Assembly (NCBI GenBank): GCA_050246815.1
Contig: JBFWVI010000068.1
Coordinates: 1-13,513, forward strand
Length of the DNA stretch: 13,513 bases
Direction of reading: 5' to 3'
Source: Bdellovibrionales bacterium
GTDB taxonomy: Bacteria; Bdellovibrionota; Bdellovibrionia; Bdellovibrionales; UBA1609
A program made the position numbers and the translations under genes. The notes under the pieces were generated by a model. The model had not been told where the DNA came from and did no database searches. It saw only the letters and a program-made list of their open reading frames with translations. Below, in pieces: positions 1-13,422 of this stretch (position 1 is its first letter; the number at the start of each line of letters is the position of its first letter).

Positions 1-1077
1 GTGGGCGATAAAACCAGTCTGATTTTATCCCCCCTGGTGGCCGCGGCCGGCGTGCCCGTGCCCATGATGGCGGGGCGGGGCCTGGGCCACACCGGTGGAA
101 CCCTGGACAAGCTTGAGGCGATTCCGGGTTTCAACGTGCGCCTTGATCTTGATCAATTCCGCCGGCTGATCGATCAGGTGGGCACGGCGATCATCGGGCA
201 AACCCAAAATATCTGCCCGGCCGATCTTAAGCTTTACTCCTTACGCGATGTGACCGGAACCGTGGATTCGATCCCCCTGATCTGTGCATCCATCATGTCT
301 AAAAAACTGGCCGAGGGTGTGGGCGGCTTGGTTTTGGATGTCAAATACGGCAGTGGCGCCTTTATGAAAGACCTCGAACAGGCGCGCACTTTAGCGCGCA
401 ATCTGGTGCAGATCGGCCATCTGCGCGGCCGCCGCATGGTCGCGCTGCTGACCGACATGAATCAACCCATGGGGCGCTTTGCCGGCAATGCTTGCGAGGT
501 GCAGGAATGTCTGGATATTCTCGGCGGCCAAGATCAAGAGCATCGCGAGTTGCATCACGACACGCGCGAAGTCACTTTGCAATTGGCCTCTCACATGTTG
601 GTGCTTGCAGATGTGCAAAAAGATCTTTTAAGCGCGCGCCAAGAGTGTGAACGCCTGCTGACCAGCGGCGCGGCCCTACAGAAATTCAACCAGATGTGTC
701 TGGCCCAAGGCGCCCAGCCCAATTGGCGCCTGCCTGTGGCCAAATACCAAAAAATCATTGCGGCACCGGCGGCCGGCTTTGTTAACGGCTATCAAGTAGA
801 ATCGATCGGCTTTGCCGGCATCGAACTTGGTGCTGGACGACTGCAAAGCAAGGATGTCATCGATCCCACCGCCGGCATCGAGTTTTACAAAAAACTTGGC
901 ATGCGCACAGAAAATGGCCAGCCGCTGTTCAGAATTTTTGCGAACTCCGAAAAGGGGTTCCAAGCCGCCGAAACAAGATTGCTTCAGGCGGTTACGATCG
1001 ACGCCACCCCAAAATCAGCGCCACCTTTAGTGGCCGCAATTGTCACACCAAACGGAGGACAAGATGTCCACGGATGA
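1..1077 (+). CDS. pdp: Pyrimidine-nucleoside (thymidine) phosphorylase, 5'-truncated by the window edge
   Basis: Family motifs GDKTSLIL, GRGLGHTGGTLDKLEAIPGF, YSLRDVTG, ASIMSKKLAEG, LVLDVKYGSGAFMK and C-terminal LGAGR..IDP.AGI. The ORF begins mid-protein (the GVGDK motif normally follows an N-terminal helical domain), so the true start is upstream. Confidence 0.95.
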   Translation: MGDKTSLILSPLVAAAGVPVPMMAGRGLGHTGGTLDKLEAIPGFNVRLDLDQFRRLIDQVGTAIIGQTQNICPADLKLYSLRDVTGTVDSIPLICASIMSKKLAEGVGGLVLDVKYGSGAFMKDLEQARTLARNLVQIGHLRGRRMVALLTDMNQPMGRFAGNACEVQECLDILGGQDQEHRELHHDTREVTLQLASHMLVLADVQKDLLSARQECERLLTSGAALQKFNQMCLAQGAQPNWRLPVAKYQKIIAAPAAGFVNGYQVESIGFAGIELGAGRLQSKDVIDPTAGIEFYKKLGMRTENGQPLFRIFANSEKGFQAAETRLLQAVTIDATPKSAPPLVAAIVTPNGGQDVHG

Positions 1078-1906
1078 ATTAAAACGACAACTCGACGATG
1101 CCGTGCAGTTTATTCGCGGTCTAATTTCCGTCCAACCAAAGCTGGGTATCACACTGGGCTCGGGTCTTTCGGGCTTTGCCGATCAACTGCAAAAGGCCAT
1201 CAAAATTCCTTTCGCGGAAATTCCGCACTTCGCGCCCCCCACTGTGGCGGGACATGGCGGACATTTAGTCGTGGGTCTGCTGGACTCAACGCCCGTCGCG
1301 ATTCTGCAGGGCCGGGTTCACTATTACGAAGGTCACGACATGGCTAAAGTGGTGTTTCCCACGCGCGTGTTGGCGCAACTGGGCGTGCAAGTGTTGCTTT
1401 TGACCAATGCCTCGGGCGGACTTGACCCTTTGATGCGGCCTGGGGACTTTATGATCTTGCGCGATCACATTAATTTAACGGGGGCGAACCCTTTGCGCGG
1501 ACCTAACCCTGATTTTTTAGGCCTGCGCTTTCCGGACATGAGCGAGCCCTATGACAAAAACTTAAGAAAACTTTTGCATCAGTCTTTAGACAAAGCGGCG
1601 GCCCGCTACTCCGAAGGAGTCTATGCGGGCGTGGCCGGCCCCTGCTATGAAACCGCCGCTGAAGTTCGCTTTTTACAGATCATCGGCGCCCAAGCCGTGG
1701 GTATGAGCACCGTGGCCGAAACCATTGCCGCTCGCCACTGCGACATGCGGGTGGCCGCCCTGGCTTGCATCACCAACCAGGCCACGGGCTTGAGCTCGGG
1801 GCAGATCACCCATGACGAAGTCAAAGACATCGCCAAGCTTGTCGAACAAAAATTTTCTGCGGCCTTAACCGATTTCACAAAGCGCCTGAGCCCGGAATTA
1901 AAATAA
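1064..1906 (+). CDS. punA: Purine-nucleoside phosphorylase, trimeric PNP-I (inosine/guanosine) type
   Basis: Motifs LGSGL, GRVHYYEG, LTNASGG, DHIN, RFPDMSEPYD, GPCYETAAE, VGMSTVAE, ITN, THDEV. Start moved to ATG 1064 because GGAGG lies at 1054-1058. Overlaps the pdp 3' end by 14 nt. Confidence 0.95.
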   Translation: MSTDELKRQLDDAVQFIRGLISVQPKLGITLGSGLSGFADQLQKAIKIPFAEIPHFAPPTVAGHGGHLVVGLLDSTPVAILQGRVHYYEGHDMAKVVFPTRVLAQLGVQVLLLTNASGGLDPLMRPGDFMILRDHINLTGANPLRGPNPDFLGLRFPDMSEPYDKNLRKLLHQSLDKAAARYSEGVYAGVAGPCYETAAEVRFLQIIGAQAVGMSTVAETIAARHCDMRVAALACITNQATGLSSGQITHDEVKDIAKLVEQKFSAALTDFTKRLSPELK

Positions 1907-1908
1907 TT

Positions 1909-3231
1909 ATGGCGGTTTTATTGCGCGGTGGCCGCGTTGTCACCATGAATTCAAAGCGCCATGTTTTCACCGGCGACGTCCGTGTCGATGGCCGCCACAT
2001 TGTCGCGCTTGGCACCAAAATCGACGCGCAAAAAGGCGACACAATCTTAGATGTCCAAGACCATTTTGTTATCCCGGGCTTGATTCAAGTGCACACCCAC
2101 TTATGCCAGGCCATGTTTCGCGGCTTCGCCGACGATTTGCGCTTATTGGATTGGTTAAAGAAAAAAATCTGGCCCATGGAAAGCGGTCACAACGGTGAAT
2201 CCTTGACCGCTTCCGCTCAGATCGGCCTGCTTGAAATGCAACTTTTAGGCACCACAAGCATTTTGGATATGGGGACCGTTCAACACACGGACCACATTTT
2301 TAAAGCCGTCCAAGAAAGTGGCATGCGTTACGTCGGCGGCAATTGTTTGATGGATCGCAAGGGCTCTGCGGGTCCTTTGTGGCAAGCGCGCCAGCCCGCC
2401 CTCAAAGAATGCCAACGCCTGATTGAAAAATGGCAGGGTCAAAATCCTTTGATCGAATACGCGTTGAACCCTCGCTTCGCCATCTCTTGCAGCGACCATC
2501 TGCTACGCGACTGCGTCGGCCTGCAAAAATCCTACAATTTGAAAATTCATACGCACGCCTCGGAAAGCCTTGAGGAGATCGCCATCGTCAAAGCCCGCAC
2601 CGGACTTAGTAATGTAGATTACTTGGATTCCCTTGGCATGCTGGGCCCGCAAACAGTCCTGGTGCATGGCGTTCATTTAAGCGCGGGTGAGCTTCGAAAG
2701 ATGATTCGCACGAAAACCCCGCTGGTACATTGCCCCAGCTCGAATTTAAAATTGGCCAGCGGGATCGCGCCAATTGAACGGTATAGAAAATTAGGTTTGC
2801 AAATGGGCCTCGGCTCTGATGGGGCGCCCTGTAACAACAACATGGACCCTTTTTTAGAAATGCGCCTAACTGCACTGCTGCAAAAGCCGCGCTTTGGCCC
2901 CGAAGCGATGTCGGCCGCGCAGGCTTTCGAGCTGGCCACACTTGGTGGCGCGCGGGTCTTAGGTAAGAGCGATTTGCTGGGTTCGCTGGAGGCCGGCAAA
3001 CTTGCAGACATTGCCGTAGTTGAGGCTTCGCATCCTTCGGTCGCCACGGTAGAAAATCCCTATTCTGCTTTGGTGTACAGCTGTTCCGGCCGCGACGTGC
3101 GACATGTGTTGATTGATGGACAAATTGTGGTTCGTGATCGCCAGCACTGGCGCTGGTCCTTGCCACAAGTGGTCGCCAAAACCAAAGACGAGCGCAAAAA
3201 ACTCTTCTCCCGCATCGGTATTTCAGCTTAG
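1909..3231 (+). CDS. Metal-dependent amidohydrolase, MtaD/5'-deoxyadenosine deaminase (AtzA/TrzA-like) family
   Basis: PGLIQVHTHLCQ (HxH), HTHASE (HxxE), HCPSSNLKLASG, LGSDGAPCNN (catalytic Asp), GSLEAGKLAD. Starts 2 nt after the punA stop. Exact substrate is inferred from context. Confidence 0.85.
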   Translation: MAVLLRGGRVVTMNSKRHVFTGDVRVDGRHIVALGTKIDAQKGDTILDVQDHFVIPGLIQVHTHLCQAMFRGFADDLRLLDWLKKKIWPMESGHNGESLTASAQIGLLEMQLLGTTSILDMGTVQHTDHIFKAVQESGMRYVGGNCLMDRKGSAGPLWQARQPALKECQRLIEKWQGQNPLIEYALNPRFAISCSDHLLRDCVGLQKSYNLKIHTHASESLEEIAIVKARTGLSNVDYLDSLGMLGPQTVLVHGVHLSAGELRKMIRTKTPLVHCPSSNLKLASGIAPIERYRKLGLQMGLGSDGAPCNNNMDPFLEMRLTALLQKPRFGPEAMSAAQAFELATLGGARVLGKSDLLGSLEAGKLADIAVVEASHPSVATVENPYSALVYSCSGRDVRHVLIDGQIVVRDRQHWRWSLPQVVAKTKDERKKLFSRIGISA

Positions 3232-3241
3232 GAGGCCGGGC

Positions 3242-3760
3242 ATGAAAACACTTATTCACATTTTGTTTTTTCTTTTGTCTTGTGGTGCCTTCGCCGCAAG
3301 CCCCTCGTCGGCCATCATCACGCATCAAAGGTGGGGCAACTTGGACCAGGTCACCCAATACGGACAGTTCTATTTTTCAGCGGCCCCCGACGAAAACGCT
3401 TTGGCTGAATTTAAAAAACGCGGCGGCCAGGCCGTCGTTGATCTGCGCACCACTAAAGAAATGGATTGCAGTGAATTGGCCGTGGCAACCAAGCTCGGTT
3501 TGAAGTACCAAAATATTCAATTTAAGAAAGCGGAGCCAATTAACAAAGCTGTGATCGCGCAAATTGAAAAGGCGGTGGCTGACAGCAAGGGGGCATCCAT
3601 TTTGCTTCATTGTGAAACCGGCAATCGTGCGGCGGCTTGGTTGGCAATTCATTTGGTGACTCAAGATAAAATGAAGCCAAAAGAAGCCTTGAGCATTGCC
3701 GAAGAAGTGGGCTTAAGATCCGCTGACCTTAAAACCAAAGTCGGCACCTACCTGAAGTAG
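3242..3760 (+). CDS. Secreted DUF442/Blh N-terminal-type protein (PTP-like fold, CxxGxR; phosphatase-like or sulfurtransferase)
   Basis: ATG 3242 follows GGAGG (3231-3235). Sec signal MKTLIHILFFLLSCGAFA. Motifs AVVDLR..E, LGLKYQNI and LLHCETGNRA (HCETGNR at 3608-3628). The 43-aa upstream extension in the ORF track overlaps the deaminase and is probably not translated. Confidence 0.75.
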   Translation: MKTLIHILFFLLSCGAFAASPSSAIITHQRWGNLDQVTQYGQFYFSAAPDENALAEFKKRGGQAVVDLRTTKEMDCSELAVATKLGLKYQNIQFKKAEPINKAVIAQIEKAVADSKGASILLHCETGNRAAAWLAIHLVTQDKMKPKEALSIAEEVGLRSADLKTKVGTYLK

Positions 3761-3784
3761 TTGCAGCGCATTAGTGTTTTTTGT

Positions 3785-4195
3785 TTACGTGACTCGTCGG
3801 CCCCTAAACACCACGTCAACGTGGTCAATCTGGTACCCTTGCAAGGAGTCTGCGTTGACCTGCACCTGCGAAGGATCGATATCAAAAATTTGATTGGCGT
3901 CCGAGTCATATAAGTGGAAATGATTGGACGTGTTCGAATCGTAAATAAGTCGTGCCGCTTGCGGCGAATAAAACGCACGAATCAAACCCACGGCCACGAA
4001 CTCGTTGAGGGTGTTGTAGATGGTTGCGCGACTCACTTGGGTTAAATTTAAATCCGCCCAATTGTAAAGATCGTCCGCCGTGAAGTGTTGGTGCTCTTTT
4101 AATATGTAAGCTGCAAGAGCGATTCGATGCACGGTGGGCCTGACGCCACGCGCTTTTAATTTTTCAACGGTCTTTATCTGATCTTCTGTGTTCAT
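3785..4195 (-). CDS. Fur-family transcriptional regulator, Irr/PerR-like
   Basis: LKARGVRPTVHR, HFTADDLY, VSRATIYNTLNEFVAVGLI (Fur wHTH) and YDSNTSNHFHLYD (HxH). No Cys residues, so no CxxC zinc site. ATG at 4195 gives 136 aa, a typical Fur size. Confidence 0.9.
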   Translation of the reverse strand: MNTEDQIKTVEKLKARGVRPTVHRIALAAYILKEHQHFTADDLYNWADLNLTQVSRATIYNTLNEFVAVGLIRAFYSPQAARLIYDSNTSNHFHLYDSDANQIFDIDPSQVQVNADSLQGYQIDHVDVVFRGRRVT

Positions 4196-4204
4196 AACTA
4201 AACT

Positions 4205-4233
4205 CTTATAACATGTTTTTAGATTGAATCTAA
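4205..4233 (-). promoter_or_regulatory. Candidate promoter for the Fur-family gene (extended -10)
   Basis: Minus strand reads TTAGAT (4233-4228), 17 nt, TATAAG (4210-4205), with the -10 preceded by TGt. It ends only 9 nt before the ATG. Confidence 0.4.
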
Positions 4234-4235
4234 AA
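4217..4235. promoter_or_regulatory. Perfect 9-1-9 inverted repeat, probable operator of the adjacent Fur-family regulator
   Basis: TTTTAGATT-G-AATCTAAAA lies in the 93-bp AT-rich divergent gap. Its core TTTAGAT-N3-ATCTAAA differs from the Irr ICE consensus TTTAGAA-N3-TTCTAAA at 2 symmetric positions. Confidence 0.8.
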
Positions 4236-4252
4236 TTCTTTCTCTTTAAGCT
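4224..4252 (+). promoter_or_regulatory. Candidate sigma70 promoter for the diheme enzyme operon
   Basis: TTGAAT (4224-4229), 17-nt spacer, TAAGCT (4247-4252). Lies 36 nt upstream of the GTG start at 4289. Confidence 0.55.
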
Positions 4253-4288
4253 TTGTTTGAAAGTATTTTGAGAACAGGGGGATTCCAA

Positions 4289-5431
4289 GTGAAAGATAAA
4301 CAACTGCGCCCATGGCTCGCTGCATTGCTGTGCTTCGTGACGGCCGGGTCTCAAGCACAAAATAAAAGTGCTGAAGCCAATCAAGATTTGTTGGGCCTGC
4401 CCGCGCTGAACGTGCCCAAAGACAATCCCATCACCAAAGAAAAAGTGGTTTTGGGGGACCGTCTATTTAATGACGTGCGCTTTAGCTCGACAGGCAAAGT
4501 GTCTTGCGCCACTTGCCACGATCCCAATAAAGCTTTCACAGACTCGCCACTGAAAACCTCGAAAGGAATCCATGATCTGACCGGCACTCGCAACGCGCCG
4601 ACGGTGATCAATTCCGCTTTCTACCAAACCCAATTTTGGGATGGACGGTCCCCCAGCCTAGAAGATCAGTCCCAACATCCGATCATCAACCCCGTCGAAA
4701 TGGGCTTAAAAAATCACGAGCCCTTGCTGCAAATTGTACGTGGAGAAAAATCTTACCAGGATATGTTCAAGGCCGCATTCGGGGTGGCCGCGCATAAAAT
4801 CAGCATGAAACATGTGATGATGGCAATGGCCACCTTTGAAAGAACCATTATCGACGGCAACAGCCGCTTTGATCGCTGGTACTTCAAGGGCGAAGCCACT
4901 TTGTCTGAAAAAGAAATCGCAGGATTTCAAACTTTCGTTGGCAATGGCCGCTGTGTTTCATGCCACGCGGTCGAACAAACCAGCGCCTTGTTTACAGACA
5001 ATAAATTTCATGCCATTGGTGTGGGCATCAACCGCCTACCACAAGCCGAGGTTGAACGACTTGGTCATGAATTCTTACAGGCTCAGTACGACAACAAACA
5101 AGTTGATGAAAAAGTCTTGAGTGATGCCAAAGTCTCGGAGCTTGGCCGTTTCGCCGTGACTCGAAACATGAGCGAAATGGGCGCATTCAAAACATCCGGC
5201 CTTCGCAATATCGATCTGACCGCGCCTTACATGCATGACGGCAGCTTGAAAACGCTCGAAGACGTGGTTGAACACTACAACCGCGGTGGTGCGAGCTCGG
5301 ACAAAGAGAAAAGCGCCATTACGCCGTATTTGAGCGGCGGCATTCGCCCCTTGAATCTGACCAACGCCGAAAAATCCAACCTGGTCGCCTTTATGAAAGC
5401 TTTGACCAGCCAAAAGCGCGAAAAGAAATAA
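4289..5431 (+). CDS. Diheme bCcP/MauG-superfamily enzyme (annotatable as cytochrome c peroxidase), exported
   Basis: Two heme motifs, CATCH (4505-4519) and CVSCH (4952-4966). Also RNAPTVIN, QFWDGR, NPVEMG and LRNIDLTAPYMHDGS. GTG 4289 follows AGGGGG (4276-4281). Sec signal ending ..AGSQA. Confidence 0.93.
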   Translation: MKDKQLRPWLAALLCFVTAGSQAQNKSAEANQDLLGLPALNVPKDNPITKEKVVLGDRLFNDVRFSSTGKVSCATCHDPNKAFTDSPLKTSKGIHDLTGTRNAPTVINSAFYQTQFWDGRSPSLEDQSQHPIINPVEMGLKNHEPLLQIVRGEKSYQDMFKAAFGVAAHKISMKHVMMAMATFERTIIDGNSRFDRWYFKGEATLSEKEIAGFQTFVGNGRCVSCHAVEQTSALFTDNKFHAIGVGINRLPQAEVERLGHEFLQAQYDNKQVDEKVLSDAKVSELGRFAVTRNMSEMGAFKTSGLRNIDLTAPYMHDGSLKTLEDVVEHYNRGGASSDKEKSAITPYLSGGIRPLNLTNAEKSNLVAFMKALTSQKREKK

Positions 5432-5440
5432 GGAGACCCC

Positions 5441-6514
5441 ATGAGCTCAAACAATTCTCGACGTCATTTTATTCATAGCGGCTTGTCCTTGGCGGCCATG
5501 GCGACTTTGCCAATGAGCATGGTGCGCATTGCCTTTGGCGACTCCAAAAAAGAGGACTTCACCTTCGCTTATATCTCGGACTCACACATTCAGCACATCA
5601 AGGGTAATGAGTTCGTGCGCAATTGGGATCAGGGCTTGAAGCGCGCAGTGGCGGAAACAAATCTTTTGGTTCCTAAACCCGACTTTGTCATTTTCGGTGG
5701 CGATTTGGCCCAGCTGGGGACGAAGCCCGAACTGGACCACGGCGCCGAAATGCTCTCGGCTTTAAAATACAAAACCTATCATGTGATGGGCGAACACGAC
5801 TTCTATTTGGACATGGGCCAATACTGGGAAAAGCTTTTTGGCCCCCAATATTACAGCTTCGATCACAAGGGCGTGCACTTTGTCGTGTTGAACAGCATTT
5901 TGACTTACGATTCGTGGATCAAACGCTGGGCCACGCCCGAGCAACGCATGAACGAAATGGCCGGCCTCGACAACCCGAACGGCTCGCCGTTTATGGTAGG
6001 CGAAACCCAACGTAAGTGGCTAGCTAAAGATCTTGAAAAAGTCAGCAAAAACACTCCACTGGTCGTGCTATCGCATTCACCGCTACAAAAAATATTTAAA
6101 AACTGGAATTTCTGGACCGACGACGCCGAGCAAGTTCAAGCCCTGCTTAAACCATTCAAAAAGGTCAACGTGCTCTATGGTCACGTGCACCAGATCCAGT
6201 ACAACCAAATCGGCAACATCGCCTTTAATTCTGTGATGGCGACCGCTTGGCCGTGGCCGTACCCGGCGTCTTACGCATTGGCCGACAGTCATCTGCCGGT
6301 GTTGACCGTGCCGATGAATCGCGCCGACCCCTTTGACGAACGCGACGCCACCGGCTGGCAGTACATCAACATGAACACTGGCCGCGTGGCCGCCCGCTAC
6401 CAACTGGCCAGCAACCAAAACCGCACGGTGGCGTTCAACAGCAAAACCGGTCGGCCCGAAGACGTTTCGTTTCAAAAGCCAAGCTCGCAAATTCCACCAC
6501 AAACCCATTATTAG
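5441..6514 (+). CDS. Tat-exported calcineurin-like metallophosphoesterase
   Basis: Twin-arginine signal SRRHFI (5456-5473) plus a hydrophobic stretch ending IAFG. Metal motifs DSH, GGDL, GEHD, LSH, GHVH. RBS AGGAG abuts the upstream stop. Confidence 0.9.
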   Translation: MSSNNSRRHFIHSGLSLAAMATLPMSMVRIAFGDSKKEDFTFAYISDSHIQHIKGNEFVRNWDQGLKRAVAETNLLVPKPDFVIFGGDLAQLGTKPELDHGAEMLSALKYKTYHVMGEHDFYLDMGQYWEKLFGPQYYSFDHKGVHFVVLNSILTYDSWIKRWATPEQRMNEMAGLDNPNGSPFMVGETQRKWLAKDLEKVSKNTPLVVLSHSPLQKIFKNWNFWTDDAEQVQALLKPFKKVNVLYGHVHQIQYNQIGNIAFNSVMATAWPWPYPASYALADSHLPVLTVPMNRADPFDERDATGWQYINMNTGRVAARYQLASNQNRTVAFNSKTGRPEDVSFQKPSSQIPPQTHY

Positions 6515-6525
6515 ATTGGACACCA

Positions 6526-6543
6526 GGGTCGCTTTTGCGGCCC
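6526..6543 (+). other. Intra-operonic GC-rich hairpin without U-tract
   Basis: GGGTCGC-TTTT-GCGGCCC forms a 7-bp stem with one U:G pair, fully paired only on the + strand. Confidence 0.5.
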
Positions 6544-6563
6544 CACCTCACACAGGAGTTGTT

Positions 6564-6968
6564 ATGATGAAATTAATTTTGAGCGTTATGTTGATGCTGT
6601 TCTCTGCCGCCTCGGCCTTGGCTGATGACTTCACTAAAGAGGACGTGGCCCGCTGGCAAAAAGAATTCGACACCGTGGCCAAATACGGTCGCGAGCTTTG
6701 GACCAACTCCGCCAAGGTGAAAATCGGCACCAACGGCGTGGCCTGCGCTCAGTGCCACCCGAATGGCGCCAATACCCACCCCGAAACTTACCCCAAGTTC
6801 CAAAAGCAACTGGGCAAGGTCACCACCATTTTTGAAATGATCAACTGGTGCATCCGCAACCCACTGCAAGGCACAAACCTAGCCGCCGACTCCAAAGAAA
6901 TGATCGCGCTGCAAGCCTACATCGCCGCCGAACGAAAAGGCATAAAACTAGCCCCCGGCAAACACTAA
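6564..6968 (+). CDS. Exported monoheme cytochrome c resembling the TsdA heme-1/SoxA domain (probable His/Cys ligation)
   Basis: AGGAG (6554-6558) precedes ATG 6564. Sec signal ending ASALA. CAQCH at 6744-6758, followed by YPKF...VTTIFEMINWCIRNPLQG..LAADSKEMIALQAYI, which matches the TsdA/SoxA pattern YP.Y....TL..RI..C....M.G..L..DS.EM.A..AY. Confidence 0.8.
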   Translation: MMKLILSVMLMLFSAASALADDFTKEDVARWQKEFDTVAKYGRELWTNSAKVKIGTNGVACAQCHPNGANTHPETYPKFQKQLGKVTTIFEMINWCIRNPLQGTNLAADSKEMIALQAYIAAERKGIKLAPGKH

Positions 6969-6983
6969 GGTGCCTGGCACCTT
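6967..6983. repeat. Perfect 8-1-8 palindrome (REP-like element or terminator hairpin)
   Basis: AAGGTGCC-T-GGCACCTT overlaps the cytochrome stop codon and is followed by TTGGTTT. Confidence 0.55.
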
Positions 6984-7004
6984 TTGGTTTAGCTTTGCGT
7001 CATA

Positions 7005-7034
7005 GGCGGGCTGAAAAGTCCGCTGCTTATTTTT
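7005..7034 (+). terminator. Probable intrinsic terminator of the diheme/metallophosphoesterase/cytochrome operon
   Basis: GGCGGGCT-GAAA-AGTCCGCT stem (GNRA loop, two G:U pairs) followed by GCTTATTTTT. Confidence 0.55.
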
Positions 7035-7183
7035 ATAGCCGTCCCGTGAACCTGGACCTTGGCCAAGATCAGAGCCCGCTTCTGGTCATGCTTCGTTTTA
7101 GAACAATTTGGACTAACCCAAACTCCAGTTCAGCCGACATATAAGAAGGGCCCCATGCACGGGGCCAGGGGCTTGGGGGGAAC

Positions 7184-8434
7184 ATGGTTGTTCCAAAGAA
7201 TTTCGTCTTAAAATTAACCGCTTGCGCATTTTTGTTACTGAGTGCGGTCGGTTGCGCCAAAACCAAAACGTCTGAAACTGTTTTCCCAAAAGTAACCACC
7301 GAATGTGACGATCAATCGCTAAAAGGCCGCTATGTGGTTCGCTGGGTGGATGGCCACGTCACACTTTATAAAGGCCAAGACCGCGAGCAGGTTTTGCGCG
7401 ATTTAGTCGATCAAAACTTACAGCACTTGGATCTAGTCGAGCCTGACTACCGCGTGACATTGCCAAAGGCAGCGGGCGATTTGCCGACCGCGGTGACCAC
7501 CGCGCCTGACAACTGGGGCCCCGCGCGAGTCAACGCCGATCAAGCCTGGCAGCAAGGCTATCGCGGCGACGGGATCACCGTGGCCGTGATCGATAGTGGC
7601 GTCGACATCAGCCACGATCAATTGCGTAGTCAAGTGGCTCGCAACACCGGTGAAATCGCCAACAATCGAATCGACGACGACGGCAACGGCTACGTGGACG
7701 ACGTGAATGGTTTTGATTTTACCATTGATCAACCCACCATTCGCGACAACGGCGAACACGGCACCCACGTCAGCGGCATCATCGCCGCCCAACACGACGA
7801 CAACGTGGCCGGCGCCCAAGATCACGTGCAGGGCATTGCGCCAGAAGCTAAAATTTTACCCTTGGCCTTTATCGACAGTAGCGGCAGCGGCTCACTGTTT
7901 AATGCCATGCGCGCCATCGACTACGCCGCCGAACGTGGCGCCCAAGTCATCAACGCCAGCTGGGGTGGAGCCTCTTGCTCTTCCATCATGCGTGATCAAA
8001 TTGGTGGGCTTTACGCCAAGAAAGTGATTTTTGTTGCGGCCGCCGGCAACAGCGGTTTGAACATCGATCAATTCCCCGAATACCCCGCCGCCTTCAACCT
8101 GCTCTCGCAACTGACCATCGGTGCCACCGGCGGCTTCGAAGCCCGAGCACAATTTTCAAATTACGGCGATCAGGGTGTGCATCTTTTTGCTCCTGGAGTG
8201 GACATTGTCAGCACCCTGCCCGACCAAAGCGTCGGGCCCATGAGCGGAACGTCCATGGCCACACCGATGGTAGCCGGTGCGATTGCAGTTTTATTAAGTG
8301 CCCGCCCCCTTGCCGGCGTCGACCAGTTGCGCCAAGCTTTGTATCAATCCGCCCGAATCGACCGCACCTACCGCAATGCCTCTAGGGGCCGCATGGATCT
8401 AGGGGCAGCAGTGGCCCGCCTGCTTCTTCAATAG
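7184..8434 (+). CDS. Subtilisin-family (S8) serine protease, probable lipoprotein
   Basis: Catalytic triad motifs VAVIDSG, HGTHVSG and GTSMATP. Oxyanion AAAGN. Ca-loop DDDGNGYVDD. Lipobox-like LSAVG-C after a hydrophobic stretch, then a short propeptide. Confidence 0.93.
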   Translation: MVVPKNFVLKLTACAFLLLSAVGCAKTKTSETVFPKVTTECDDQSLKGRYVVRWVDGHVTLYKGQDREQVLRDLVDQNLQHLDLVEPDYRVTLPKAAGDLPTAVTTAPDNWGPARVNADQAWQQGYRGDGITVAVIDSGVDISHDQLRSQVARNTGEIANNRIDDDGNGYVDDVNGFDFTIDQPTIRDNGEHGTHVSGIIAAQHDDNVAGAQDHVQGIAPEAKILPLAFIDSSGSGSLFNAMRAIDYAAERGAQVINASWGGASCSSIMRDQIGGLYAKKVIFVAAAGNSGLNIDQFPEYPAAFNLLSQLTIGATGGFEARAQFSNYGDQGVHLFAPGVDIVSTLPDQSVGPMSGTSMATPMVAGAIAVLLSARPLAGVDQLRQALYQSARIDRTYRNASRGRMDLGAAVARLLLQ

Positions 8435-8503
8435 CGCGCCGCAGAATATTGGCCCCAATTCCGCTGCAAATTCAGCTCCTCGCGTGCTAAAAATTCGGAC
8501 GAT

Positions 8504-9796
8504 ATGAAAAAAGTCTGGATTCGCGATTTAAAGGACAAGGTTGGGCAAACCGTTGAGCTGCAAGGCTGGGTCTACAACACCCGCTCTTCGGGAAAAATTA
8601 AGTTTCTGTTATTGCGTGATGGCACAGGCACCTGCCAATGCGTTTACTTCCGTGGTGAGTGCGAAGAGAAGGCTTTTGAAATCTTCGAACAGGCTACTCA
8701 GGAAAGCCTGGTGACGGTCACCGGTGTGGTTCGCGCTGAACCGCGCAGCCCCGGTGGATACGAAATCTCGGCCCGCGCGCTTGAAGTCGTCCACCAAGCC
8801 AAAGATTATCCCATTACTCCCAAAGAGCATGGCACTGATTTTTTAATGAACAATCGCCATCTTTGGCTTCGTTCAAAGCGACAGACGGCGATCCTGGGCG
8901 TTCGCCACGAAATCATCAATGCGATTCGCGATTTCTTTGACGGCCGCGGCTTTACTTTGGTCGACGCGCCGATCTTTACGCCCAGCGCTTGCGAGGGCAC
9001 ATCGACTTTGTTTGAAACCAAGTACTTCGACACCAAGGCCTACTTGTCACAAAGTGGTCAGTTGTACATGGAGGCCGCCGCCGCCGCTTTAGGCAAAGTA
9101 TATTGCTTTGGCCCTACTTTCCGCGCAGAAAAATCCAAAACCCGTCGCCACTTGATCGAGTTTTGGATGGTAGAGCCGGAGGTGGCCTTTAATGACCTTT
9201 ACGACAACATGGAATTGGCTGAACAATTCGTTGAATACATTGTCCAGCGCGTGCTCACCAACCGCCCCGACGAGATGAAGGCCCTTGAGCGCAACGTCGA
9301 CGCTTTGAAAAACGTCAAAGCGCCCTTTCCGCGGCTTCATTATAACGAAGCCGCGCAAATGATTTTAAAAGAGAACCCCGAATTCAAAGTGGGTGACGAT
9401 TTCGGCGGTACTGATGAAACGATTGTCAGTTCAAAATTCGACAAACCCTTGTTTGTGCACCACTACCCGGCGGCGGTGAAAGCTTTCTATATGAAAGAAG
9501 ATCCCAAAGAGCCGGGCGCCAGCATGAGTTGTGACTTGCTGGCCACCGAAGGCTACGGCGAAATCATCGGCGGCGGCCAACGCGAAGACAGCCTGGATAT
9601 TTTGCTCGAGAAAATCAAAGAACATAAATTACCTCAAGCCGACTTTGAGTGGTTTTTGGATTTGCGCCGCTATGGCACATTCCCCCACGCCGGTTTTGGC
9701 TTAGGCGTCGAACGCACGGTCAGCTGGATCTGCGGCTTGCCCCACGTTCGCGAAACTATTCCCTTCCCGCGACTTTATGGCCGAAGTTACCCGTGA
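8504..9796 (+). CDS. asnS: Asparagine--tRNA ligase
   Basis: N-terminal OB fold (GWV..R.SGKI.FL.LRDGTG), [61 protein letters not shown]. Confidence 0.96.
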
Positions 9797-9803
9797 GGTT
9801 TTC

Positions 9804-11375
9804 ATGCTAGAGAAAAACACCCCCCTGACCACGCAAACCAAATTGCAGAATCTGGAGCATCGTAACGACGCGGCCATGGTGGGCGGTGGCCCCGAGCGCG
9901 TTGCCAAACATAAAAAGGGCGGACGCCTGACCGCGCGTGAGCGGCTGGATGTCTTGTTGGATCCGGGTAGTTTTGTCGAAGTGGATCGTTTTGTTACACA
10001 CCGCTGCGAAAATTTTGGCATGAGCGAGGAGCGAATTCCTGGCGACGGCGTGATCACTGGCTATGGCCGCGTGAATGGAAAACTGGTTTATGTTTACAGC
10101 CAAGACTTCACTGTTTTTGGCGGCTCGATGTCGCGCACACAGGCCAATAAAATTTGTAAAATCATGGAAATGGCCCTTAAAAACGGCGCCCCCATGATCG
10201 GCTTAAATGACTCCGGCGGCGCGCGCATTCAAGAGGGTGTAGAGGCTTTGGGCGGATACGCCGACATTTTTCTGCGCAACGTGACGTCTTCAGGAGTGAT
10301 TCCGCAAATCAGTGCGATCATGGGCCCCTGCGCGGGCGGTGCGGTTTACAGCCCCTCCCTCACCGATTTTATTTTCATGGTGAAAAACACCAGCTACATG
10401 TTTGTGACCGGCCCTGACGTGATCAAGGCCGTCACCCACGAAGAGGTCACCAAAGAAGAGCTTGGTGGAGCGCTGACCCACAATCAAAAATCGGGAGTGG
10501 CCCACTTTGCCGCTGACGATGACAAGCACTGCCTGCTGCTTATTCGCGAGCTCTTGAACTTTCTGCCCGGCAATAACCTGGACGATGTCCCCGTTTTGCC
10601 CAGCAAAGACCGCCCTGACCGCATCGAAGAATCGCTAAACACGTTTATTCCAGACAGCTCAAAAAAGCCTTATGACATGAAGCAATTGATCACGAAAGTG
10701 GTCGACGATGGCTACTTTTTAGAAATCCAACAGCATTACGCACAAAACATCATCATCGGTTTTGCTCGATTGAATGGCCGCAGTGTGGGTATCGTGGCGA
10801 ACCAGCCACAAATTTTGGCGGGTTGCTTGAATATTCCGGCTTCGATCAAAGCCGCTCGTTTTGTGCGCTTTTGTGACGCCTTCAATATTCCTGTGGTCAC
10901 GCTTGTCGACGTCCCCGGTTTCTTGCCCGGCACCGATCAAGAGTGGAGCGGCATCATCACTCACGGAGCAAAGCTTCTTTATGCATACGCCGAAGCCACC
11001 GTGCCCAAAGTGACTTTGATCACGCGCAAAGCCTACGGCGGAGCCTATGACGTGATGTCGTCAAAACACCTGCGCGGCGATATCAACCTGGCCTACCCCA
11101 CAGCCGAAATCGCCGTCATGGGCGCGGATGGTGCGGTGAACATTATCTTCCGAGAAGAAATCAAAGGCGCCAAAGACCAAGCGGGCGAAAAAAATCGACT
11201 AGTGAAAGATTACGAAACCAAATTCGCCAATCCCTATGTGGCGGCAGAAGTGGGTTATATCGACGAAGTCATTGAACCCGCGATGACCCGCAAACGCCTA
11301 ATCGATAGCCTTGAAATGCTGAAAAACAAGCGCGACACGAATCCTCCAAAAAAACACGGGAACATTCCTCTTTAA
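9804..11375 (+). CDS. pccB: Acyl-CoA (propionyl-CoA) carboxylase beta / carboxyltransferase subunit
   Basis: [54 protein letters not shown]-terminal [11 protein letters not shown] 9804 follows GAGG (9795-9798), which overlaps the asnS stop. Confidence 0.93.
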
Positions 11376-11385
11376 AGGCGGCCAT

Positions 11386-12885
11386 ATGTTTCGAAAAATT
11401 CTGATCGCCAATCGTGGAGAAATCGCCGTGCGGGTCATTCGCACTTGTCGCGAGCTGGGCATCTTAAGCGTGGCCGTGTATAGCGATGCCGACCGCAACG
11501 GCATGCACGTTATGTTGGCTGATGAAGCTTATCACATTGGCCCGGCCCCCAGTATCGAGTCCTATTTGAACGTCGAAAAGATTCTGGATGCCGCGCGCCG
11601 CTCAGGCGCTGAAGCCATCCATCCCGGATATGGTTTTTTAAGCGAATCGCCGGCCTTTGCCAAAGCTGTGAAAGATGCCGGCCTCACCTTTATCGGTCCC
11701 ACGGTCGAAAATATCTTGGCCATGGGCGATAAGCTTGCTTCGCGCGAATTAATGAAAAAAGCCGGGGTGCCGACGGTGCCTGGCAGCAAAGATGCGGTTA
11801 AAGATTTGGCTGAAGCTGAAAAAGTCGCGGCCGAAATCGGCTTTCCGGTCATTTTAAAGGCTTCCGCCGGAGGCGGCGGTAAAGGCATCCGAGTCGTCCA
11901 CGAGAAAAAAGAATTGGAAAGCGCGCTGCGCGCCTGCCAAAGCGAAGGTCGCAACTATTTTAAAGACGACCGGGTCTTCATTGAACGCTTTATTCAAAAC
12001 CCCAAACACATCGAAGTTCAGCTGTTTGGCGACACCCATGGCAATGTGGTCCACCTTTACGAGCGCGAATGTTCGATGCAACGTCGCCACCAAAAACTGG
12101 TCGAAGAATCGCCCAGCATTTCGGTACCGCAAGACGTGCGTGAAAAAATGGGGCAAGTGGCAGTGGCGGCCGGCAAGGCCATTCGTTACGTTGGTGCCGG
12201 CACCATCGAATTCATTTTTGACAACCGCACCAAAGAATTTTTCTTTATGGAGATGAACACCCGCCTACAGGTGGAGCATCCCGTAACGGAACTGGTCGTG
12301 GGCTACGATCTGGTCAAAGAGCAAATCATGGTGGCCGCCGGTGAGCCCCTGTCATTCAAACAAAGTGACGTCAAGCAAAGCGGTCACTCCATTGAACTTC
12401 GAATCTGTGCTGAGGACCCGGTGACCTTTGCGCCCAATCCTGGCACCATCCGTCGCTACCGCACCCCACAGGGGCCGTTTGTCCGCTTGGACAACTGTGC
12501 ATACCCGGGCTATGAAGTGCCGATTTATTATGACCCCATGATCGCCAAACTGATCACCTGGGGGAAAACCCGTGAAGACTGTATTCGCCGTTTACAGCGC
12601 GCTTTGGGTGAATACATGTGTACGGGTATTAAAACCAATATCGTCTTCCACAAAAATATTCTGGTGCACCCGACCTTTTTGGATGGGACTTACACGACCC
12701 AATTTATTGATCAGCAGTTGACCGGAAAAAAACAGCGCGAACTGTTCATGTTCGTGGACGATCATGTTTTTTTGATCGCCGCAGCCATTACCGCCTACAA
12801 CGACAGCAAGTCGCGCGATGTCTCGGAACACAACCTGGCCAGCCAGTGGCGCAAATTCGGCCGGCAAAAGCAGTTGAGGACTTAA
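11386..12885 (+). CDS. accC: Biotin carboxylase subunit of the acyl-CoA carboxylase
   Basis: KILIANRGEIA, IHPGYGFLSE, KASAGGGGKG, ERECSMQRRHQKLVEE, EMNTRLQVEHPVTE, YYDPMIAKLI. No biotinyl domain in this ORF. Confidence 0.94.
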   Translation: MFRKILIANRGEIAVRVIRTCRELGILSVAVYSDADRNGMHVMLADEAYHIGPAPSIESYLNVEKILDAARRSGAEAIHPGYGFLSESPAFAKAVKDAGLTFIGPTVENILAMGDKLASRELMKKAGVPTVPGSKDAVKDLAEAEKVAAEIGFPVILKASAGGGGKGIRVVHEKKELESALRACQSEGRNYFKDDRVFIERFIQNPKHIEVQLFGDTHGNVVHLYERECSMQRRHQKLVEESPSISVPQDVREKMGQVAVAAGKAIRYVGAGTIEFIFDNRTKEFFFMEMNTRLQVEHPVTELVVGYDLVKEQIMVAAGEPLSFKQSDVKQSGHSIELRICAEDPVTFAPNPGTIRRYRTPQGPFVRLDNCAYPGYEVPIYYDPMIAKLITWGKTREDCIRRLQRALGEYMCTGIKTNIVFHKNILVHPTFLDGTYTTQFIDQQLTGKKQRELFMFVDDHVFLIAAAITAYNDSKSRDVSEHNLASQWRKFGRQKQLRT

Positions 12886-12888
12886 ACG

Positions 12889-13422
12889 ATGTACTTCGAA
12901 GCAGAATCCAACGGAAAAAAATACCAGCTTAATGTTTCAGAGACCCGAACCGTCTGGAAGATCGACCTGAAAGAAGATTCTGCGGACTGGGTCCACTACG
13001 ATATCCCCAAATCTGATTATCAGTACATTGACCAAACGCTCTCTTTTATTTTCAAGAACAGCTCGTATTTGGTGGATGTCACCGGCCGCGGTACTGACTA
13101 CACAGTCTACACGCGAGGTGCGCACAGCACAGTCAGGATCTACAACGAAGAAAAAATTCTGCACGAAAGCCTCAAAGGCGGGGGCAGTCTGGGCCAAAGC
13201 AACAGCTTGAATTCAGGCATGCCCGGCAAAATCGTCAAAGTCTTTGTAAAAGCAGGCGACATGGTCAAAGAGGGCGATCCCCTGCTGATCATGGAAGCTA
13301 TGAAAATGGAAAATGAAATGCGCGCAACTGGTGAAACCAAAATAAAAGAAGTTTTGGTTAAACCAGGCGACAATGTTGAATCCGGCGTTGTTTTGATCAG
13401 CTTTGAAAAAGCTCAGGCTTAG
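12889..13422 (+). CDS. Biotin carboxyl carrier protein with N-terminal beta-rich (BT-like) domain
   Basis: MPGKIVKV.VK.GD.V..GD.L.IMEAMKMENE biotinylation motif in the C-terminal part. The N-terminal ~90 aa has an alternating beta-strand pattern. Confidence 0.92.
   Translation: MYFEAESNGKKYQLNVSETRTVWKIDLKEDSADWVHYDIPKSDYQYIDQTLSFIFKNSSYLVDVTGRGTDYTVYTRGAHSTVRIYNEEKILHESLKGGGSLGQSNSLNSGMPGKIVKVFVKAGDMVKEGDPLLIMEAMKMENEMRATGETKIKEVLVKPGDNVESGVVLISFEKAQA

Follow-up and report, generated by a model that had tools for sequence, protein, structure and literature searches.

What would an exported metalloprotein of the calcineurin-like fold do in one operon with a peroxidase-family di-haem enzyme and a small cytochrome? 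The question is raised by a locus in a 13,513-nucleotide stretch of DNA (hereafter the window) from a Bdellovibrionales bacterium (assembly GCA_050246815.1, contig JBFWVI010000068.1). Here the genes for a di-haem CCP/MauG-family enzyme (CCP), a metallophosphoesterase-fold metalloprotein with the motif GEHD (MPE) and a small, predicted His/Cys cytochrome (CYT) follow one another as listed below.

4289..5431, + strand: CCP, Sec-exported di-haem CCP/MauG-family enzyme, GTG start, 380 aa (Pfam CCP_MauG, E 9e-54)
5441..6514, + strand: MPE, Tat-exported calcineurin-like dimetal protein, 357 aa (Pfam Metallophos, PF00149, E 5e-13, above cut-off)
6564..6968, + strand: CYT, Sec-exported mono-haem cytochrome of the SoxA/TsdA fold, 134 aa (Pfam SoxA-TsdA_cyt-c, PF21342, E 2e-14, above cut-off)

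The trio is likely a conserved exported electron-transfer pathway. In our preferred reading of its chemistry, to which a probability of roughly 0.45 was assigned, a core of MPE and CYT oxidises carrier-bound sulfur and passes the electrons to an exchangeable acceptor, here H2O2. An oxidation pathway is the simplest account because the core is fixed, two or three acceptors are interchangeable and three unrelated persulfide carriers accompany it.

A first-pass annotation, made from the sequence alone, had described three tightly spaced genes, their families and a divergent Fur-family gene; gene calls and Pfam confirmed all of these, with intergenic gaps of 9 nt (CCP-MPE) and 49 nt (MPE-CYT). Its Sec, Tat and Sec export signals were assigned by eye and accepted: the twin-arginine pair of MPE was present in all 110 aligned rows reaching that position (of 124 rows), and the Pfam TAT match of MPE, taken alone, was weak (E 0.014).

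Conservation of the cassette

Close MPE relatives were encoded by 500 stretches of a species-level genome collection, of which the best 80 (67-80% identity) were kept. These came from Bdellovibrionota, Acidobacteriota, Gamma- and Betaproteobacteria, Desulfobacterota, Spirochaetota, Myxococcota and other phyla, and the genes stood in the single order CCP-MPE-CYT in 75/80 loci, the remaining five being cut by contig ends. Another 80 loci, from metagenomes and selected independently through a long form of CYT, contained CYT in 80, MPE in 65 and CCP in 37, with each miss lying no more than 300 nt from a contig edge; the trio was also present in 15/15 further selected loci. The proposal of one conserved, uncharacterised system, whose genes should co-localise in other genomes, is upheld by all three sets.

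The spread was patchy. The trio was found in 3/301 genomes of the phylum of the Bdellovibrionales window, and in 3/401, 12/401 and 67/301 genomes of the phyla of loci L017, L009 and L018, respectively (each count includes the centre genome).

Loci without the di-haem enzyme

At about 40% identity, MPE and CYT genes occurred without a CCP gene in 10 loci of rhizobial and myxobacterial type, with a cupredoxin gene instead; a terminal oxidase was encoded in 8 of these and a SoxY-like carrier in 9. In the five rhizobial-type loci, cupredoxin-MPE-CYT was accompanied by a cbb3-like oxidase with its assembly genes (5/5) and by FccAB (5/5). soxY/soxZ-like genes were found in four of these loci (the stretch with the fifth ended too early), and the SoxY-like protein scored below the cut-off for true SoxY (88.7 of 125 bits). 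In the five myxobacterial loci, cupredoxin-MPE-CYT was followed directly by a gene for a Tat-exported SoxY-SoxZ fusion (5/5; by Pfam for three, by eye for two); a rhodanese gene lies in the operon in 2/5, and an aa3-like oxidase was found in 3/5.

In two of the five myxobacterial loci, an in-frame TGA follows GGG at the codon for the arm cysteine of the SoxY-SoxZ fusion (L212:2442-2444 and L214:2143-2145, minus strand), where L213, L215 and L216 encode Cys. The TGA-bearing fusion is likely a selenoprotein sulfur carrier; selA was above cut-off in 4/5 of the myxobacterial genomes, and SoxB in 0/5.

The tryptophan motifs WNFW and WPWPY of MPE were kept in all five rhizobial-type MPEs and in one fully read myxobacterial variant MPE. 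Both motifs are also kept in the MPE of G589, the one whole variant genome tested, in which no CCP/MauG-family (PF03150) gene was found while three control genomes were positive.

The rhizobial genes form an accessory island on symbiotic-type plasmids (L164, L165/L174, L172, L173, L176), which carries an atypical cbb3-like oxidase with a three-haem CcoO fusion, SCO, hemA, groEL, FccAB and a SoxY ending in TNGCA. A candidate 'TauE/SafE sulfite exporter' of this island was identified as a DsbD_2 oxidase-assembly protein and was dropped as sulfur evidence. In S. meliloti and S. americanum, a short remnant of the cytochrome gene lies beside relocated oxidase genes. In one myxobacterial locus (L213:6625-8299), cytochrome P460 and cytochrome c'-like genes are divergent from the oxidase-linked variant operon.

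The metalloprotein

Each protein had been described as departing from the textbook member of its family, and alignments bore this out: CCP has Tyr330 (107/107 rows), MPE has GEHD in place of GNHD, an exchange of Asn for Glu (124/124), and CYT has Cys96 as its only free cysteine (158/158).

In MPE, the calcineurin-like fold and five metal-binding motifs are present, with D47, H49, D88, H212, H248 and H250 as invariant ligands, and the Asn of GNH(D/E), a hallmark of calcineurin-like phosphoesterases, is missing. Among 150 representatives at 50% identity, 113 cover this column, with Glu in 103 and Asn in none. WNFW and WPWPY are invariant motifs, W270 and W272 being kept in 124/124 rows. The structure model is calcineurin-like (pLDDT 69; residues 269-318 unreliable), and its best fold matches were purple acid phosphatase (Foldseek E 8e-10), Rv0805 and GpdQ. 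MPE scored below the CpdA model cut-off (41 of 225 bits), the SoxB model TIGR04486 gave no match on MPE or elsewhere in this genome, and a search of the ESM Atlas with MPE returned generic metallophosphoesterase clusters only.

Association with one-electron carriers extends beyond the close relatives. In distant GEHD proteins the WPW motif is lost, and a cupredoxin gene adjoins in 4/5 loci. Among 34 GEHD proteins scanned for fusions, three had a cupredoxin domain and one a Rieske domain; one further GEHD protein ends in a CxxCH domain (by eye). As a control, 30 loci with ordinary PF00149 proteins had GNH(D/E) in 28, GEHD in none and a carrier motif (in any frame) in 4; this motif scan is a rough test, since it overlooked one real cupredoxin (L181). 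In a quick tree of 60 MPE rows, the close, long-cytochrome and oxidase-linked groups each clustered, and GEHD proteins stood apart from the GNHD outgroup. These carrier pairings and fusions favour the part of an earlier cofactor proposal by which the 'phosphoesterase' is really a redox enzyme.

P0296 and the seeming MPE-cytochrome fusions P0125-P0127, P0182 and P0283 were left uncounted, since each appears to reflect a frameshift or an assembly error.

The cytochrome and its predicted complex with MPE

CYT has one CxxCH motif, and its haem is predicted from the alignment to be ligated by His and Cys96. The structure model (pLDDT 89.5) matched TsdBA (Z 10.6, rmsd 3.5, 105 aligned), TsdA (Z 10.2) and SoxA (Z 9.6), so that CYT combines the SoxA/TsdA fold with a predicted Cys-ligated haem. 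It aligns best to the N-terminal domain of SoxA (TIGR04484, 48.7 of 110 bits), and the two haems and arginine-lined pocket of TsdA are not found in it. Met92 was kept in 157/158 rows, at the place where the catalytic SoxA haem has an Arg four residues ahead of the ligating Cys. The C-terminal GKH (6957-6965) is near-invariant, with His134 in 156/158 rows and GRH in the myxobacterial variants; this terminal His is possibly a switchable haem ligand or a partner contact.

The complex of MPE and CYT was predicted with a score of 0.59, against 0.00 for the best control; the runs share at least 32% of contacts, and pLDDT of the partners was at least 85. In the calibration, 18/157 solved complexes and 2/215 mismatches passed at <=0.60. 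The model thus lends weak support to MPE-CYT binding.

In a second CYT subfamily (L084-L163, e.g. P0231), the N-terminus is extended and contains one additional conserved Cys (LCDG).

The di-haem enzyme

CCP has the features of MauG-type enzymes: two CxxCH motifs, Tyr for Met at the second haem, a bridging Trp (Trp117) and distal Gln127, Pro131 and Glu137, these last four residues being kept in 106/107 aligned rows (one gap). Tyr330 aligns with Tyr in 6e1c, the best PDB match of CCP (E 1e-46), and with Met in the canonical peroxidase 1iqc. We take this column to be the axial ligand position of the second haem, for which His/Tyr ligation is accordingly predicted from the alignment. The His/Met electron-entry haem of canonical bacterial cytochrome c peroxidases is therefore not found in CCP, given Tyr330. 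CCP scored below both the MauG (205 of 444 bits) and the MbnH (257 of 363 bits) model cut-offs, and no cognate substrate gene (MADH, MbnP) recurred as a neighbour in the clustered loci.

This genome encodes two further CCP-family proteins, both with Met at the position of Tyr330 (by eye). On contig C49 (9678-12219), a gene for a canonical Met-type cytochrome c peroxidase lies directly upstream of one for a sulfide:quinone-reductase-like flavoprotein (by eye), a second peroxide-sulfur pairing in this genome.

Sulfur and stress genes beside the cassette

The cassette had been described as self-contained, which proved too narrow, as a DUF442-type gene, lying here outside the annotated span of 3785-7034, accompanies it in 6/80 loci:

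3242..3760, + strand: exported DUF442/Blh-type putative sulfurtransferase, HCETGNR loop with Cys retained (NCBIfam Blh, E 1.7e-11, far under cut-off)

The DUF442 homologues adjoin the cassette in three arrangements with unrelated flanking genes, and in 13/80 loci, from Gammaproteobacteria, an exported rhodanese is encoded directly upstream of it. Both kinds of protein look exported and have the catalytic Cys in a C-x-(T/S)-G-x-R loop. FccAB genes lie close to one locus, and another is abutted by a gene for a CoA-disulfide-reductase/rhodanese fusion. Stress-related neighbours among the 80 loci were Fur-family regulators (23), bacterioferritin (7) and peroxiredoxin (4).

Regulation

Two features ahead of the operon bear on its control:

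3785..4195, - strand: Fur-family regulator of PerR/Irr type, 136 aa from its ATG (Pfam FUR, E 4e-16)
4218..4234, no strand: palindromic operator candidate TTTAGA-N5-TCTAAA (12/14 matches to the Irr ICE consensus)

The regulator has H37, D86, H92, H94 and D105, presumably a PerR-type site, and no Cys4 zinc site. Its scores for Irr (96.7 bits), PerRB (96.2) and IrrA (95.9) were each below cut-off; calling it 'Irr-like' is reasonable, and it could not be separated from PerR. Cassette regulators of Acidobacteria scored best to PerR/Fur models and carry the Cys4 site that the regulator here lacks, so different peroxide or haem sensors have been recruited.

The palindrome lies 22 nt ahead of the ATG of the regulator and 54 nt ahead of the CCP gene, and as an ICE-type site it agrees with the consensus TTTAGAA-N3-TTCTAAA, as given in PMC1698941, at 12/14 positions. 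Its pattern was matched once here and never in 200 shuffles; as the pattern was read off this same site, the real support comes from conservation in other genomes. Sites with at least 10/12 matches were present within 800 nt upstream of the CCP gene in 18/112 rows (11 of the 112 were invalid, the gene being cut by a contig edge, and none of these 11 scored), against 0/105 controls (7 rows had no control) taken from coding sequence, which is less A+T-rich than intergenic DNA. The matches mostly sit just ahead of the first gene of the operon, and ICE-like sites also precede 3/5 of the rhizobial variant operons; these rhizobial upstream sequences showed no consistently placed FNR box. With a matrix built from 21 sites of other genomes, 4218-4234 ranked 2 of 94 in this genome; no clear regulon emerged here, the top match lying at a gene end and the third inside a gene. 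Of the shared promoter and operator that had been proposed, the operator stands as a candidate, its palindrome being kept in other genomes, and the promoter does not rise above chance, at 1 sigma-70 promoter-like site found vs 2.7 in shuffles. Palindrome and PerR/Irr-type regulators together point to control by peroxide or iron, as judged from motif and family.

On contig C86 (1116-3037), the rank-4 operator-like site precedes genes for a secreted Cu/Zn-superoxide-dismutase-like protein (by eye) and a small His-rich protein.

Comparison with known systems

The cassette works most like Sox and yet fails the tests for SoxA, SoxB and SoxYZ. As in Sox, a periplasmic His/Cys cytochrome of the SoxA/TsdA fold goes with a Tat-exported calcineurin-like dimetal protein, and in the variants SoxYZ-like carriers, FccAB and rhodaneses are encoded beside the core. 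In contrast to Sox, CYT resembles the N-terminal haem domain of SoxA and lacks the catalytic arginines, MPE misses the SoxB model, no SoxX or SoxCD is encoded in the loci, SoxY and SoxB are missing from this genome, a MauG-type enzyme or a dedicated oxidase serves as acceptor, and the regulators are of PerR/Irr type. Lacking SoxB, SoxY and the SoxA/TsdA arginines, the system falls outside Sox. A Sox-analogous pathway 'without SoxYZ' had been one of two alternatives offered by the first-pass annotation. It gains from the recurrence of SoxY-like carriers, FccAB and two unrelated sulfurtransferases and loses by the missing arginines of CYT, and the clause 'without SoxYZ' is wrong for the variants.

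TsdA and TsdBA are the best structural matches of CYT, with the haem-ligating Cys96 aligned, whereas CYT has a single haem, replaced arginines and a near-invariant C-terminal His. With MauG/preMADH/amicyanin and MbnH/MbnP the cassette shares Tyr at the second haem, the bridging Trp, a Trp-rich exported neighbour with WxW and an electron carrier in the operon; it differs in that CCP is under both model cut-offs, the neighbour is a metallophosphoesterase and the core also occurs without CCP. BthA/PhosA of Burkholderia is similar in that a MauG-like enzyme is described as always beside a putative phosphatase (PMC6405878). BthA is a distant match to CCP (6nx0, E 3.5e-15) without the bridging Trp that CCP keeps, and the pair is given as Burkholderia-specific, with no cytochrome partner mentioned in the accessible portion of that source. 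BthA/PhosA and MbnH/MbnP may thus serve as analogies. In the ECF206 and ECF207 loci, a calcineurin-like phosphoesterase is placed next to a cytochrome c (ECF206) or a cupredoxin (ECF207), the layout of the distant GEHD relatives; in the accessible portion of that source these are gene contexts without a function, and neither a di-haem enzyme nor a His/Cys cytochrome is described (PMC7826278).

No description of the cassette was found in open-access full text (PMC, bioRxiv), a search that left subscription journals and most supplements outside. Since it lacks tested hallmarks of Sox, TsdA, MauG, MbnH, canonical peroxidases and CpdA-type hydrolases, it appears to be a new kind of system.

Proposed mechanism and alternative explanations

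In the preferred reading, a sulfurtransferase (DUF442 here; rhodanese or SoxYZ-like proteins elsewhere) would deliver sulfane sulfur, which the GEHD dimetal site of MPE would oxidise or cleave. CYT, probably bound to MPE, would ferry single electrons, and CCP would discharge them onto H2O2 under predicted PerR/Irr control. As CCP would spend the electrons on H2O2, the module is proposed to clear both peroxide and reactive sulfur from the periplasm. More tentatively, the GEHD lineage may be one of phosphoesterase-fold oxidoreductases that, with a stand-alone SoxA-like haem, form a widespread Sox-independent pathway burning carrier-bound sulfur with H2O2 (the MauG-type enzyme acting as acceptor, not maturase) or with O2 (through a dedicated oxidase), and so link sulfur oxidation to peroxide defence. 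Its hosts, with the same reserve, would be predators, methanotrophs, nitrifiers, myxobacteria and rhizobia for which sulfur oxidation is not known. If true, redox chemistry would be added to a fold known almost solely for hydrolysis, MauG-type enzymes would gain a role as terminal electron sink, and a sulfur- or peroxide-handling pathway would be recognised in hundreds of species, where it is now annotated 'cAMP phosphodiesterase' or 'hypothetical'. With three small soluble proteins and harmless hosts in culture (Methylomonas, myxobacteria and strains of Sinorhizobium meliloti), the system is directly testable.

Several observations weigh against this reading. What sequence and context show is the order of the genes, the exchange of partners, the changed residues and the conserved operator, while the substrate, the direction in which electrons flow, the ligation of the haems, binding and regulation are deduced, the sulfur substrate solely from neighbouring genes. 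No sulfur gene lies near the cassette in about three quarters of the 80 loci, and among the 80 long-cytochrome loci no such gene recurs. SoxY was found in 11/50 cassette genomes (50 of the 80, mostly chosen for long contigs), and no SoxY, FccB or SoxB was found in the genome studied here (99.1% complete), whose DUF442 gene starts 10 nt after a nucleoside-salvage gene and lies outside the CCP-MPE-CYT operon. The sulfur associations amount to about four independent events, because the rhodanese, DUF442, rhizobial and myxobacterial cases each come from a few related genomes. MPE has no cysteines. In CYT, Gln82, Met92, Asn99 and a Pro align with Arg82, Arg92, Arg99 and Ser100 of TsdA; as the arginines, which serve the active site in SoxA and TsdA, are replaced by Gln, Met and Asn, CYT is unlikely to be a SoxA/TsdA catalytic haem. 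A close MPE gene stands alone among transposases in L167, and the distant GEHD relative L178 has no carrier. The myxobacterial SoxY domains also match Desulfoferrodoxin, with the His/Cys metal ligands kept, which fits a role with superoxide equally well. Tyr-ligated di-haem enzymes are described mainly as strong oxidants of protein partners in the accessible portions of PMC6405878 and PMC11951088.

The L178 gene belongs to a chromate-resistance cluster (2933-7090) that also encodes a rhodanese and a cytochrome c assembly protein, and no cupredoxin.

Among the alternatives, a sulfur-free detoxification of reactive oxygen species or iron is rather unlikely: the dimetal site would oxidise superoxide or Fe(II), and the electrons carried by CYT would reduce H2O2 (or O2 in the oxidase variant), so that both Fenton reactants would be removed. 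PerR/Irr-type regulators from at least two clades, bacterioferritin and peroxiredoxin neighbours, ICE-like operators in both variants, the superoxide-reductase-like metal site of the myxobacterial SoxY domains, the lack of a monofunctional catalase in this genome and distant GEHD relatives that need only a cupredoxin all suit it; yet it leaves the three unrelated persulfide carriers, FccAB and the Cys/TGA arm of the SoxYZ fusion unexplained, and the genome already holds the two other CCP-family genes with Met at the ligand position. A maturase triad, the remaining half of the cofactor proposal, is improbable. CCP would here oxidise a Trp of WPW or WNFW to a protein-derived cofactor, and CYT would accept electrons from the modified MPE, for which the conserved Tyr330, Trp117 and distal triad, 6e1c as the nearest solved relative and the invariant W270 and W272 speak, as does the kynurenine of MbnP, which arises from a WxW motif through MbnH in the portion of PMC11951088 consulted. 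What weakens it is that this core, Trp motifs included, exists without a CCP/MauG gene: the motifs track CYT, not CCP, in 0/10 variant loci was a CCP gene present, and G589 has no PF03150 member at all. The position of the surface Trp199 of MauG is, as far as we can place it, apparently Gly220 in CCP.

It is similarly improbable that MPE is a hydrolase, be it a SoxB-like S-sulfo hydrolase that serves a redox pathway or a plain phosphoesterase sharing its regulation with a peroxidase, as has been suggested for BthA/PhosA. Its other metal ligands and the catalytic His119 are invariant, its best fold matches are those given above (purple acid phosphatase, Rv0805 and GpdQ), an acidic residue at a comparable position does not keep PhoD from being a hydrolase, and SoxB is itself a hydrolase of the calcineurin-like fold. 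These points are set against GEHD fusions to cupredoxin and Rieske domains, the constant pairing with one-electron carriers and the 67-80% identity of MPE across phyla. A SoxB-like step would fit the sulfur-oxidation reading too, turning the system into a variation on Sox-type chemistry, and the true rival is the plain-phosphatase form alone.

Other features of the window

Two further features follow the cassette:

6967..6983, no strand: short palindromic REP-like genome repeat (hairpin at the CYT stop), not operon-specific (repeat count in genome)
7005..7034, + strand: possible intrinsic terminator (hairpin of -14.0 kcal/mol for 6999-7040)

The terminator that had been placed at the operon end was not sustained, as hairpins of the kind at 7005-7024 did not exceed the shuffled level (6 in the region vs 6.6 in shuffles). 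The 13-nt core of the 6967-6983 hairpin has 26 copies in this genome, against 0.1 expected. The flanks (1-3231 and 7184-13422) look ordinary by eye, with nucleoside-salvage genes, a subtilase lipoprotein (Pfam S8), an asparaginyl-tRNA synthetase and acyl-CoA carboxylase subunits.

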